Notes under the pieces: generated by a model
What the model saw: only the letters and a program-made list of their open reading frames with translations
Databases searched by the model: none
What the model was told of the DNA's origin: nothing
NCBI RefSeq assembly: GCF_002854065.1
Contig: NZ_CP024147.1
Strand: one strand, 5' to 3'
Length of the DNA: 64,000 nucleotides
Origin: Escherichia coli
GTDB lineage: Bacteria; Pseudomonadota; Gammaproteobacteria; Enterobacterales; Enterobacteriaceae
Shown here: positions 1,647 to 59,200 of the stretch, one piece after another
Numbering within the stretch: position 1 is the stretch's first letter
Layout: each line of letters begins with the position of its first letter
Position numbers and translations under genes: made by a program

Positions 1647-1722
<76 letters not shown>

Positions 1723-1758
1723 AAATTTGAAAAGTGCTGCAAAGCACAGACCACCCAA

Positions 1759-1834
<76 letters not shown>

Positions 1835-1869
1835 AAATTTGAAAGTGCTGCAAAGCACAGACCACCCAA

Positions 1870-1945
<76 letters not shown>

Positions 1946-32124: not shown

Positions 32125-32979
32125 ATGTTGTCCAAACAAATCCCGCTTGGCATCTATGAAAAAGCGCTCCCCGCCGGGGAGTGCTGGCTGGAACGCCTGC
32201 AACTGGCAAAAACGTTGGGCTTCGATTTTGTCGAGATGTCGGTAGATGAAACGGACGAGCGCCTGTCGCGCCTCGACTGGAGCCGCGATCAGCGTCTGGC
32301 GCTGGTGAACGCGATTGTTGAAACCGGCGTACGCGTACCGTCAATGTGCCTTTCTGCTCATCGTCGTTTCCCGCTGGGTAGCGAAGATGACGCGGTGCGG
32401 GCGCAGGGGCTGGAGATTATGCGTAAAGCTATCCAGTTCGCTCAGGACGTCGGCATTCGCGTGATCCAGCTGGCGGGCTATGACGTTTACTATCAGGAAG
32501 CCAATAACGAAACGCGTCGTCGTTTTCGTGACGGCCTGAAAGAGAGCGTTGAGATGGCAAGCCGCGCGCAGGTGACGCTGGCGATGGAGATCATGGATTA
32601 TCCGTTGATGAACTCCATCAGCAAGGCGCTGGGCTACGCGCACTATCTCAACAATCCGTGGTTCCAGCTCTACCCGGATATCGGCAACCTGTCGGCGTGG
32701 GACAACGATGTGCAGATGGAGTTGCAGGCCGGAATCGGGCATATCGTCGCAGTACATGTGAAAGACACCAAACCTGGCGTCTTCAAAAACGTGCCGTTTG
32801 GCGAAGGTGTAGTGGATTTCGAACGTTGTTTCGAAACGCTCAAACAGAGTGGCTATTGCGGGCCGTACCTGATTGAGATGTGGAGCGAAACGGCGGAAGA
32901 CCCGGCGGCAGAAGTGGCGAAAGCGCGTGATTGGGTGAAAGCGCGCATGGCGAAAGCGGGCATGGTGGAGGCGGCATAA
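32125..32979 (+). CDS. ulaE: L-ribulose-5-phosphate 3-epimerase UlaE
   Basis: 284-aa [29 protein letters not shown]. Confidence 0.95.
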
Positions 32980-33665
32980 TGCAAAAGCTAAAACAGCAGG
33001 TATTTGAAGCCAACATGGAGCTGCCGCGCTACGGGCTGGTGACCTTTACCTGGGGCAACGTCAGCGCTATCGACCGCGAACGCGGGCTGGTGGTGATCAA
33101 GCCCAGCGGCGTTGCCTACGAAACCATGAAAGCGGCCGATATGGTGGTGGTTGATATGAGCGGCAAGGTGGTGGAAGGGGAGTATCGCCCATCTTCCGAC
33201 ACTGCGACGCATCTCGAACTCTACCGTCGTTACCCGTCGCTTGGCGGCATTGTCCATACCCACTCCACTCATGCCACCGCATGGGCGCAGGCGGGGCTGG
33301 CGATCCCGGCGTTAGGCACCACGCACGCTGACTACTTCTTTGGTGATATCCCGTGTACGCGTGGATTAAGCGAAGAAGAGGTGCAGGGTGAGTATGAACT
33401 GAACACTGGCAAAGTGATTATCGAAACGCTGGGCAACGCCGAGCCGCTGCATACGCCGGGAATTGTGGTGTATCAGCACGGACCGTTCGCCTGGGGGAAA
33501 GATGCCCACGACGCGGTGCATAACGCGGTAGTGATGGAAGAAGTGGCGAAAATGGCGTGGATTGCGCGCAGTATTAATCCACAACTCAATCACATCGACA
33601 GCTTCCTGATGAATAAACACTTCATGCGTAAGCACGGCCCTAACGCTTATTACGGGCAGAAGTAA
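32979..33665 (+). CDS. ulaF: L-ribulose-5-phosphate 4-epimerase UlaF
   Basis: Track ORF 32931..33665; start [21 protein letters not shown] overlapping ulaE stop (TAATG); 228 aa. Confidence 0.95.
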
Positions 33666-33672
33666 AACACGC

Positions 33673-33755
33673 GCTGCGGAAATTTCCTTCCTCGGGAGAT
33701 AACTGGTCTAATTCCGCAGCCGTTTTTCAAAAAAAGCCCCCTGCGAAGGGGGCAA
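33673..33755. terminator. Back-to-back terminators between convergent ulaF (+) and yjfY (-)
   Basis: Plus: GCTGCGGAAATTTCC...GGTCTAATTCCGCAGC then CGTTTTTC; minus: GCCCCCTTCGCAGGGGGC followed by T7. Confidence 0.65.
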
Positions 33756-33793
33756 AGCAAACTATGGCAATGTTTCGTTGGTTATACCTGGTG

Positions 33794-34069
33794 CTAGCGA
33801 TAAATATCCGCGCTGGCGTGCATATTGCCGTTACTCCCCGGTTCCCGCATCAGAATTACGTGGTAGTACGTTGCGCCTTGCGCATCTGTTTCTTCATTTA
33901 ATGCCTGACGTGCTTCGCTTTCAGTGGCGAAATTATGATTGATATAAATCACGCCTAAGCTTTGCACATCGTCCATATTTCTGGCCTGGTGGTTATTAAT
34001 TTCAATGGCTGCCCATGTATTTGCACTTAGCAAAAGCACAGCCAGAAGGGCTAAAACTCGACTGAACAT
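33794..34069 (-). CDS. yjfY: Periplasmic DUF1471 (YhcN family) protein YjfY
   Basis: Track ORF 33794..34138; start MFSRVLALLAVLLLSANTWAA; 91 aa. Confidence 0.85.
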   Translation of the reverse strand: MFSRVLALLAVLLLSANTWAAIEINNHQARNMDDVQSLGVIYINHNFATESEARQALNEETDAQGATYYHVILMREPGSNGNMHASADIYR

Positions 34070-34377
34070 AGATACCTCCTCGACGGCTGACTTTGTGTGC
34101 TCTCCTCTGTGATGATCTTCTGATTTAATTTTAATCAATGATAAAGAAGTTGATGGTGACCATTTCTGATGCAGTTGTTCGAAAAAACACTGTGACGGAA
34201 TGTGATGAACTTCAAATCAGCGGTTTAGAGGTTATTTGCGAAAGGGGAGATTTATTTCTGCTCCGCCCTTGAGTTTAGCGGGGTATGTCAGTACTATAAC
34301 GCGTCATTTTTCAGCCGACCTTTAACACGTTCCTTGCCTCCCCGGGATTCGGCTGACCCAGACAGGAGGCTGAATAA

Positions 34378-34791
<414 letters not shown>

Positions 34792-35890: not shown

Positions 35891-35936
35891 AGCGAAAGCG
35901 TTACAACTGGTAGTATAACGCTCTGATATCTATTAA

Positions 35937-44511: not shown

Positions 44512-46484
44512 TTACTTACTCAAATCCACCTGATAAATCGCAAACCCGATATCATCGGTCGCGACTTTATTCATCGGATATTGCCCTTTCTCTTTAATAA
44601 ACGCTGCGGCTTTATCTGACGGGGAAGTTTCGAAACGGATATCCAGTTTCTTATCGCCGGCTATCGGTGCTAAACGCCAGTTGTTATCTGCCGCCGGGTG
44701 AATTTCCCCCGCACGTTTCGACTCATCAGCAATCCACGCTGCCAGCACCGAGCGGTTCTCATCCGGTGAAGCAAAAGCGATATGGCTGTCGCCCGTACCG
44801 GCAAATTTGCCGCCGTAAGCGCGATAGTTATTGGTGGCAACGAGGAACATGGCGTTCGGATCAATCGGCTTGCCGTTAAAGGTCAGGTTCTTAATCCTTT
44901 CCGCATTGGCATTAACCATCTGGCACTCGCCGTCATAACGGGCAGGCTGGGTAACATCAATCTGATAATTCACACCATCAATCACATCAAAGTTATAGGT
45001 GCGGAAACCATCCCAGTTGATGAGTGACTGTGGTTTCGTGTTGTCAGGATCAATCTGGTTAAACTGTCCGGCGGAGCACTCCAGCCACTCTTTCACCTCT
45101 TTACCGCTGGCTTTCACCACAATCAGCGTATTGGGGTAGAGATAAAGATCGGCGGCATTACGGAAGGTCAACTGGCCTTTTTCCACCTCCACATAGCTTG
45201 CCGGATCATTTTTGCGACCACCAACTTTAAACGGTGCAGCAGCTGAAAGCACCGGCAGTTTTGCCAGATCCGGATCGTCCTGAATGTAATGCTCGACATA
45301 CGCTTTTTGCGCGTTGTTCACCACCTGCACGGTCGGATCGTCCTGCACCAGCGCCAGATAGCTATACATATTGTCGGCGGATTTACCGATTGGCTTGCTG
45401 ACGAACTGGCGTGTGGCATCGTGATCGGCTTTGAGTGTTTCTACCAGCTTGCTGTCTTCCGCCGCGAGGGATTTTTTATTGGCGATGTCGTAAATCGGCC
45501 GTGCTTCCGCTTTCGCCTGCGTCACCTGCCATTTACCGCTGTTATTACTGAGTTGTAAGTCGACCACCCCAAGATGATCGCCCCACATGCCCGGCATTAC
45601 CGCCGGAACACCATTCAGCGTGCCTTTCGCGATATCAGCCCCTTCGATACGATATCAGCCCCTTCGATATCAGCAAAATCTTTACCTGGGAAAACGGCGT
45701 GAGCATGGCCAAACATAATGGCGTTAACGCCAGGAATTTCACTGAGGTAATAAACTGAGTTTTCCGCCATCACTTTATACGGATCGGCAGATAGCCCGGA
45801 ATGCGCCAGAACGACAACGACATCGGCACCTTTCTCGCGCATTTCAGGCACGTATTTGCGCACGGTTTCGGTAATATCATTCACCGTCACTTTTCCGGAT
45901 AAATTAGCTTTATCCCAGCCCATGATTTGCGGCGGCACGACGCCAATATAGCCAATCTTCAGCGTCTGTTTTTTTCCGTCTTTATCGACCACTTCGGTAT
46001 CTTTAATTAAATACGGTGTAAACATTGGCTGTTTGGTTCTGGCGTCAATGACGTTGGCATTTACATAAGGGAATTTCGCTCCCGCCAACGCATTTTTCAG
46101 GTAATCCAGACCGTAGTTAAATTCATGATTGCCGAGTGTACCGACCGTATAATCCAGCGTATTCAGCGCCTTATAAACCGGATGAACATCACCTGCTTTT
46201 AATCCTTTCGCCGATATGTAATCGGCCAGCGGACTCCCCTGAATCAAATCGCCGTTATCGACCAGTACGCTGTTTTTCACTTCATTGCGGGCATCGTTAA
46301 TCAGGCTTGCCGTACGTACCAGTCCGAATTTTTCCGTGGCGGTGTCTTTGTAATAATCGAAATCCATCATGTTGCTATGCAGATCAGTGGTTTCCATGAT
46401 ACGTAGATCGACCGTCGCTGCATTCACACTGGCGGCAATCAGCGTGGCCAGGAGCGTTGCGCTAAACTTAATCATCAGGGACAT
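44512..46484 (-). pseudogene. cpdB: cpdB (periplasmic 2',3'-cyclic-nucleotide 2'-phosphodiesterase / 3'-nucleotidase) split by a 20-bp tandem duplication
   Basis: N-terminal ORF 45615..46484 (signal peptide [36 protein letters not shown], ends ...[19 protein letters not shown]) and C-terminal ORF 44512..45597 ([15 protein letters not shown]...) are adjacent and co-directional; removing one 20-bp copy rejoins them in frame. Confidence 0.85.
45630..45669. repeat. Perfect 20-bp tandem duplication CGATATCAGCCCCTTCGATA x2 inside cpdB
   Basis: Read directly: 45630-45649 and 45650-45669 identical. Confidence 0.9.
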
Positions 46485-46664
46485 CCTTTTATCATCGGGA
46501 ATACGAAAGAAAAGGGAGAATAAACGCCTTACTTATAGAACAGTGAAGAATGCCACAATTTTACGCTTTGAAAATGATGACACTATCACAGTTGGCGCAT
46601 TCATTAACGATAGGGTATAAGTAAAACAATAAGTTAACACCGCTCACAGAGACGAGGTGGAGAA

Positions 46665-49888: not shown

Positions 49889-50064
49889 ATCTTATCCGAC
49901 CTTTCAGGCCAGATCCTCGGAAGGGGAAGTTGATTAATTTGTGTGAAATACACATTGAAAGCCGATTCGAAGAAAGTGAACCGGCATTTTCAGTGGCTAG
50001 TATAGCGTAAGGTACTGTAAAGTCGCCAGAGGGTTAAAATTCAGACTGCTGATAAATGCAATAC

Positions 50065-50165
50065 TGCCTGATGCGCTATGCCAATCAGGCCTACGCAGTC
50101 CTTGCAATATATTGAATTTGGACGATTTTGTAGGCCTGGTAAGGCGTTTACGCCGCATCTGGCAT
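50065..50165. repeat. REP/BIME palindromic elements
   Basis: GCCTGATGCGCTATGCCAATCAGGCCTAC ... GTAGGCCTGGTAAGGCGTTTACGCCGCATCTGGCA. Confidence 0.8.
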
Positions 50166-59092: not shown

Positions 59093-59200
59093 ATGCCTGA
59101 TGCCGATTCGTAGGCCGGATAAGGCGCTCGCGCCGCATCCGGCGGTGGTGCGCTGAAGCCTGATGCGACGCTTACCGCGTCTTATCATGCCTACTGGGAG
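59093..59200. repeat. REP/BIME palindromic elements
   Basis: GCCTGATGCCGATTCGTAGGCCGGATAAGGCGCTCGCGCCGCATCCGGCGG ... GCCTGATGCGACGCTTACCGCGTCTTATCATGCCTAC. Confidence 0.8.

Follow-up and report, generated by a model that had tools for sequence, protein, structure and literature searches.

The genes ulaF and yjfY of Escherichia coli run towards each other across a short intergenic gap, which raises the question of how their transcripts end there, and whether each gene has a terminator of its own. We examined this locus in a 64,000-nt stretch of E. coli DNA (contig NZ_CP024147.1), referred to here as the window. According to the ORF list and RefSeq annotation, ulaF, which encodes L-ribulose-5-phosphate 4-epimerase and is the last gene of ulaABCDEF, occupies positions 32979-33665 of the + strand and ends with a TAA stop codon (33663-33665). 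yjfY occupies 33794-34069 of the - strand, with its stop codon at 33794-33796, and encodes a secreted protein of 91 aa from the DUF1471 / YhcN family; beyond it lie rpsF, priB, rpsR and rplI. UlaR keeps the ula operon repressed unless ascorbate is present. Gene names are those of the RefSeq annotation of K-12 and of a 100% identical E. coli strain (L73); the identity to this strain extends over the 701 bases around the site, which were matched in 5425 of 5426 complete E. coli genomes. The original prediction had described a convergent intergenic region of 128 bp, and both its coordinates (33666-33793) and the underlying gene calls proved correct. In K-12 MG1655 the gap measures 129 bp (4424387-4424515), the sole differences being a run of A8 in place of A7 and an ulaF stop codon that reads TAG instead of TAA. 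The gene that converges on rplI, in the window beyond about position 35900, differs between strains, being an MFS transporter gene in the window-identical strain (L002, 5438-6701) versus yjfZ (DUF2686) in K-12 (L001, 5629-6001).

The gap was also predicted to hold two distinct hairpins, each followed by a T-run on its own strand, and both were recovered from the sequence and by folding. The one on the yjfY side (hairpin 2), which was identified by terminator scan, folding and alignment, is read on the - strand as GCCCCCU-UCGC-AGGGGGC (33753 to 33736). Its stem consists of 7 bp, 6 of which are G-C pairs, its loop of 4 nt, and its folding energy is -14.4 kcal/mol. Directly 3' of the stem lies a T7 run (33735 to 33729; A7 on the + strand), which gives the yjfY transcript a U7 terminator tract (U8 in K-12) and a predicted 3' end at about 33729-33733. 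Hairpin 2, located 40 nt past the yjfY stop codon, was the best match of a consensus terminator scan, which returned 10 sites in a 2.5-kb region against 2.4 +/- 1.5 in shuffled sequence. It has all the sequence features of a canonical intrinsic terminator, namely the stem, the U-tract, the position and inheritance together with yjfY, and we predict that it is a canonical strong terminator. It does not have the layout of a bidirectional intrinsic terminator, as the + strand continues after the stem with AAAGCAAAC, without a U-tract.

The hairpin on the ulaF side (hairpin 1; 33673-33720, + strand) spans 48 nt and starts 7 nt past the ulaF stop codon. Its outer stem, GCUGCGGAA paired with UUCCGCAGC (33673-33681 and 33712-33720), comprises 9 bp, including 6 G-C pairs. 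Within this lie an inner stem, AUUUCCU paired with GGGAGAU (33682-33688 and 33694-33700), which carries the loop UCCUC (33689-33693), and an 11-nt bulge on the 3' side, AACUGGUCUAA (33701-33711), in which the sequence AACUGGUCU is conserved. The structure is followed by a CG spacer, T5 (33723-33727) and a C (together 33721-33728, + strand), the putative U-tract of an ula operon terminator, with a predicted 3' end at about 33725-33728. RNAfold yielded -20 kcal/mol for hairpin 1, compared with -11.5 +/- 2.3 for shuffled sequences (z = -3.7), none of which (0/200) folded as well. The terminator scan was blind to this structure because its loop limit is 8 nt and the outer stem encloses 30 nt. Measured against an intrinsic terminator, hairpin 1 has the GC-rich basal stem and lacks the compact loop (about 3-8 nt); its U-tract is a U5 after a 2-nt spacer in the window, and a U4-U5 in most genera, not all. 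On the - strand, the sequence past hairpin 1 reads GUUCUAC in K-12 and, owing to the TAA stop codon of ulaF, GCGUGUUUUAC in this strain; in that direction the hairpin could at most act as a weak backup for yjfY read-through.

In this arrangement, TTTTT-C-AAAAAAA, a single C parts the two T-runs, and the hairpins themselves are 15 bp apart. Since only this one C lies between the runs, the predicted 3' ends abut and the transcripts would have no real overlap. On the ulaF side, the U-run lies about 58 nt past the stop codon, though the stem starts 7 nt past it; according to one study, terminators that lie a few bp past a gene are open to repression by the ribosome as it terminates (PMC4824070). 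A ribosome positioned at the ulaF stop codon would cover the 5' arm of hairpin 1.

To compare orthologous gaps from about 12 enterobacterial lineages, we scanned reference genomes with a UlaF C-terminal pattern, which gave at least 7 enterobacterial loci (Bacteroidota and Firmicutes homologs were also among the matches listed), and added contigs encoding YjfY or UlaF relatives. Hairpin 1 was found 6-8 nt past the ulaF stop codon in Escherichia, Salmonella, Citrobacter, Klebsiella, Phytobacter, Enterobacter, Lelliottia and Superficieibacter. In Klebsiella pneumoniae and K. michiganensis it is kept next to a convergent MFS transporter gene, with hairpin 2 absent, and in Superficieibacter it is kept without an adjacent yjfY. 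Hairpin 2 was found at the yjfY loci of E. coli, E. albertii, Salmonella, four Citrobacter lineages, Enterobacter, Phytobacter, Leclercia/Silvania and Dryocola. In C. farmeri it accompanies yjfY though the convergent neighbour there is a hydrolase gene, not ulaF. In an alignment of 13 lineages, its GCCCCC/GGGGGC stem is invariant and its loop variable, and every yjfY locus examined has a run of A6-A10 beside it. The inheritance is therefore modular, each hairpin travelling with its own gene, and this constitutes the strongest support for the explanation that we consider likely, namely that the gap holds two independent, gene-specific intrinsic (Rho-independent) terminators arranged tail to tail. 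The predicted pair of back-to-back intrinsic terminators was borne out by these comparative data to the extent that there is one for each gene; the description needs qualifying on the ulaF side, where a bulged structure of 48 nt with only a U5 is no textbook terminator.

In Leclercia/Silvania and Dryocola hairpin 1 is absent, so it is not indispensable. The gap contains hairpin 2 only in Leclercia/Silvania (L144, L151-L155) and in Dryocola (L146); as the sole hairpin there, it has to serve both convergent genes. In Leclercia/Silvania it lies 5 nt past the ulaF stop codon, which is itself embedded in the A-run (AAAAATAAAAAAAGCCCCC).

Where hairpin 1 is present, its outer stem has changed in sequence between genera and remained paired, as seen in the variants GCUGCGGAA/UUCCGCAGC, GCCCCGGAC/GUCCGGGGC, GCUCCGGGGC/GCCCCGGAGC and GCUCUGGAAUACC/GGUAUUCCGGAGC. 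Across 13 orthologs, 96.6% of outer-stem cells were paired, and 4 of the 9 pairs had undergone compensatory changes on both sides. The covariation score of the outer stem was 0.425, versus 0.181 +/- 0.029 after shuffling, where 0/500 shuffles reached the observed score; sliding the partner columns gave 0.128 at most. Most orthologs share a three-part shape: the outer stem encloses an inner hairpin, which stacks on the 5' strand and in many cases has a loop of the UUCG type, and on the 3' side 6-11 nt are left unpaired. Mostly within this 3' bulge lies a conserved motif, ATAACTGGTCT (33699-33709, + strand; consensus approximately GUWAYYGGUCU), whose pairwise identity is 66-69%, against 73-77% for the outer stem and 35-42% for the stop-to-stem spacer and hairpin interior. 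The only invariant unpaired columns are in this motif. By inspection, no conserved pairing partner for it was found in the 5' arm, the inner loop or the yjfY 3' UTR, nor did it correspond to any known binding site that we could identify. The motif persists in Enterobacter, although the inner hairpin has been lost there. In addition, wherever hairpin 1 is present it lies 6-8 nt from the stop codon, though the sequence of the spacer (33663-33672 in the window) is unconserved.

These data bear on the simplest rival explanation, that both hairpins are no more than inverted repeats occurring by chance in GC-rich intergenic DNA. Hairpins of like energy do lie beside T5 runs elsewhere in the window, including within genes, and hairpin 1 comes 5th when the 199 runs of T>=5 found on the two strands are ranked by the energy of the adjacent hairpin, so that its energy alone is suggestive, not decisive. 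Hairpin 1 nevertheless stands above chance, because it lies 7 nt past a stop codon and covaries across genera. With each hairpin exactly at a gene end, with 0 of 200 shuffles matching the fold of hairpin 1, and with covariation and gene-linked conservation extending over about 12 lineages, the comparative data effectively refute a chance origin, which we regard as extremely improbable.

Turning to the U-run itself, we found that a U4-U5 lies within 1-3 nt of hairpin 1 in E. coli, E. albertii, Salmonella, both Klebsiella, C. freundii, Citrobacter FP75 and Phytobacter. In Superficieibacter there are scattered U residues, and the run is absent from Enterobacter and Lelliottia (CAUUCAUAAA) and from C. 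werkmanii (AAUCUUCAGC). Overall, 9 of 13 contexts have a U4-U5 after an operon-ending hairpin 1. E. coli itself provided an informative exception. When a 101-nt probe was compared with 5421 E. coli genomes, 602 of them (up to about 11%) matched over less than 80% of its length, and in those sampled it was the hairpin 2 part alone that matched. All three of the low-coverage genomes that we inspected have a 183-aa YagU-family (DUF1440) gene between ulaF and yjfY, in the same direction as ulaF, which is absent from this position in the window and in K-12. In the two such YagU-type sequences that were read (L148, NZ_CP041392.1; L149, NZ_AP042594.1), hairpin 1 directly follows ulaF; its sequence has diverged, with compensation in the outer stem (GCCCCGGAAU/AUUCCGGGGC), and it contains an inner hairpin and a bulge reading UGGUCU. 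It folds at -28.7 kcal/mol (z = -3.2) and is followed by CUCUCCAGUUAAUAAAAUC, without a U-run (CUCUCCAGUU), while hairpin 2 comes after the extra gene. The two E. coli haplotypes differ strongly in the hairpin 1 region and are nearly identical in ulaF and hairpin 2. In Hafnia, an orthologous DUF1440 gene begins 26 nt past ulaF, without a hairpin.

The distribution of the U-run can be read in two ways. The run is present where the operon ends and missing before a same-direction gene, which argues that it is used for termination in the K-12-type arrangement. At the same time, Enterobacter, Lelliottia, C. werkmanii and YagU-type E. coli keep hairpin 1 despite lacking the run, which argues against termination as its sole selected function. 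This leads to a rival explanation in which hairpin 1 is primarily a conserved cis-acting 3' element of the ula mRNA, perhaps a stabiliser or a site of processing or protein binding, that terminates only weakly or incidentally, so that only hairpin 2 would provide efficient intrinsic termination, and would do so for yjfY. A covarying hairpin that survives without its U-run in YagU-type E. coli, Enterobacter and C. werkmanii, a bulge motif far better conserved than neighbouring unpaired positions (66-69% versus 35-42%) and a stop-codon spacing held at 6-8 nt are all what this explanation would lead one to expect. It fits less well with the U4-U5 that most lineages with an operon end at this point have directly after the stem, with the loss of the run exactly before a same-direction gene, as expected if the run terminates, and with the dispensability of hairpin 1 in Leclercia and Dryocola. 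We think this alternative possible but doubtful in its strict form; it overlaps with the two-terminator explanation and is compatible with it. Equally tentative is the suggestion that hairpin 1 represents an undescribed conserved cis-acting RNA element at the ula 3' end, with a function beyond termination in mRNA stability or processing, or as a docking site for protein or RNA. Such an element would comprise the outer stem, the inner hairpin and the bulge with GGUCU, a structure retained even between ulaF and a same-direction YagU-family gene, where the U-run is missing.

Returning to the explanation of two gene-specific terminators, we infer from these sequences how termination, its efficiency and the resulting insulation would come about. 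A polymerase arriving on the + strand from ulaF would transcribe the GC-rich basal stem of 9 bp, which closes 2 nt before U5, and would terminate at about 33725-33728, probably with moderate efficiency. Hairpin 1 would in this way keep induced ula transcription out of yjfY. A polymerase arriving on the - strand from yjfY would encounter hairpin 2 and then U7, and would terminate at about 33729-33733, so that yjfY transcription would be kept out of the ula operon. The transcripts should barely overlap, because each polymerase meets its own terminator first. The original prediction credited the pair with insulating ula against antisense read-through; in this scheme such protection would fall to hairpin 2 alone, and hairpin 1 would protect yjfY from ula read-through. 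In addition, hairpin 1 would remain in the ula mRNA as a conserved, structured 3' element, with its inner hairpin and GGUCU bulge, and it probably has a second role of this kind, for example in blocking 3'->5' exonucleases or in providing a site for processing or protein binding. Such a role would be retained in the lineages that have no U-run.

The close spacing of the two hairpins also suggests a different mode of action, in which the gap forms one bidirectional termination zone of the collision type, where the hairpins serve mainly as pause sites and head-on collisions between polymerases end both transcripts. This concept goes back to Ju et al. 2019, as summarised in bioRxiv 10.1101/2022.10.23.513370. 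The genes are indeed convergent, polymerases paused at hairpins 15 bp apart would sit on overlapping DNA, and Leclercia and Dryocola have just one hairpin for the whole gap. However, the same source describes such terminators as unlike intrinsic ones, and here each strand has a hairpin with a U-run; nor is hairpin 2 a bidirectional intrinsic terminator, given that on the + strand it continues into AAAGCAAAC with no U-tract. Moreover, the two genes have different inducers, ascorbate on one side and biofilm or plant surface on the other, which makes simultaneous convergent transcription unlikely as the norm. We therefore consider it very unlikely that collisions account for termination at this locus.

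We also asked whether the hairpins belong to a known family of repeats or RNAs. A dispersed repeat (REP/BIME, ERIC and the like) could be ruled out, as a blastn search of 5421 E. coli genomes placed the element at a single site in each. Using 15 orthologs we built a covariance model, which likewise gave no indication of a repeat family: in the 64-kb window it matched the ulaF copy only, and it identified no copy of hairpin 1 after sgbE, the ulaF paralog of K-12. Searching Rfam 15 with the + strand of the hairpin 1 region returned no match at E <= 10, and a search of the whole window at gathering scores returned none for hairpin 1. The latter search did return the rpsF leader (RF02893, 110 bits) at 34314-34398 (+), upstream of rpsF, as expected for the locus. 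It also returned five sites at 46476-46598 (+), 49950-50007 (-), 50087-50129 (-), 59113-59191 (+) and 1647-1942 (+), which are the ES239 sRNA, STnc450, ES036 (CssrF), naRNA4 (CssrE) and three tandem tRNA genes with identical scores. On the - strand of the gap, matches to STnc280, RyhB, a CRISPR repeat and isrD were sub-threshold and were set aside as terminator look-alikes. A scan of the gap found no promoter-like site, and the conserved bulge motif, checked by hand, did not make a convincing -35 element. We also rejected an ORF of 36 aa that starts with TTG and crosses the gap on the - strand, on the grounds of indels among orthologs.

The 40 nt between the yjfY stop codon and hairpin 2 (33754-33793, - strand) are unusually conserved across genera in the alignment. 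This 3' UTR (CACCAGG..CCAACGA.AACAU.GCCAUAGUUUG) shows near-coding conservation in Escherichia, Salmonella, Citrobacter, Enterobacter and Leclercia, and together with hairpin 2 and U7 it has a layout like that of a 3'-UTR-derived Hfq-type sRNA. One or both hairpins might accordingly be the 3' ends of such sRNAs, made from the ulaF 3' end or from the yjfY 3' UTR with hairpin 2 and U7 (about 65 nt). The cross-genus conservation is consistent with this idea, as is the combination of hairpin 2 and U7, which is the architecture of an Hfq-binding 3' end, and across 33724-33798 of the - strand there is a sub-threshold likeness to STnc280 (24 bits, against a cut-off of 80) and RyhB (21 against 55). 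Yet these scores fall far below the gathering cut-offs and are accounted for by terminator shape alone, and the searchable literature yielded no published sRNA at the locus. On balance, we judge an sRNA origin to be unlikely.

To see whether published transcript ends agree with the two predicted terminators, we turned to existing data. The curated Term-seq 3' ends of MG1655 grown in LB and M63-glucose (Adams 2021, PMC7815308) include none between 4416702 and 4425120, the SMRT-Cappable-seq tables (PMC6131387) do not mention ulaF or yjfY, and full-text searches for yjfY, or for ulaF together with a terminator, found nothing relevant. In EHEC, yjfY yielded 13 reads in LB versus 1365 on radish sprouts (PMC4048457). 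Both genes appear to have been silent in the published Term-seq conditions. With ula repressed unless ascorbate is present and yjfY barely expressed in LB, the lack of 3' ends in those datasets is what one would expect, and is uninformative rather than contradictory.

A terminator for each of two convergent genes is routine, and the main consequence of this analysis is to confirm the boundaries of the ulaABCDEF and yjfY operons, which carries little weight for general biology. Only the ula 3' hairpin stands out, through its additional conserved structure and motif. Since hairpin 1 contains conserved information beyond what termination needs, it could be a small, testable, multifunctional 3' element. 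In addition, the lineages compared here form a natural series in the organisation of a convergent gap, from two terminators in Escherichia, Salmonella and Citrobacter, to one hairpin for the whole gap in Leclercia and Dryocola, and to a hairpin without a U-run between same-direction genes in YagU-type E. coli.

Three kinds of known system invite comparison. Bidirectional terminators of convergent genes, whether of the A-tract-hairpin-U-tract kind or of the collision kind of Ju et al. 2019 (as summarised in the preprint above), resemble this locus in that a convergent pair is separated by a short gap and transcription from both directions is stopped, here by prediction, within about 30 bp. They are described there as one shared element, whereas the present gap has two separate unidirectional hairpins, of which hairpin 2, read on the + strand, is preceded by an A-run but not followed by a U-run; Leclercia and Dryocola show the gap reduced to hairpin 2 alone. 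Stabilising stem-loops at operon ends and between cistrons, of which REP elements are an example, are similar to hairpin 1 in being stable stem-loops right after a coding sequence, and the YagU-type version resembles them further in lying between same-direction genes without a U-run. In contrast to REP elements, hairpin 1 is single-copy and belongs to no dispersed repeat family. Finally, when set against canonical intrinsic terminators of E. coli, as defined by TransTermHP-type searches and Term-seq, hairpin 2 is alike in its stem, its 4-nt loop, its U7 and its position about 40 nt past the stop codon. Hairpin 1 shares with them a GC-rich basal stem, a U5 within 2 nt and a location at the end of an operon, and differs from them in its length of about 48 nt, its inner hairpin, its conserved 11-nt bulge, its short U-run and its retention without that run in some lineages.
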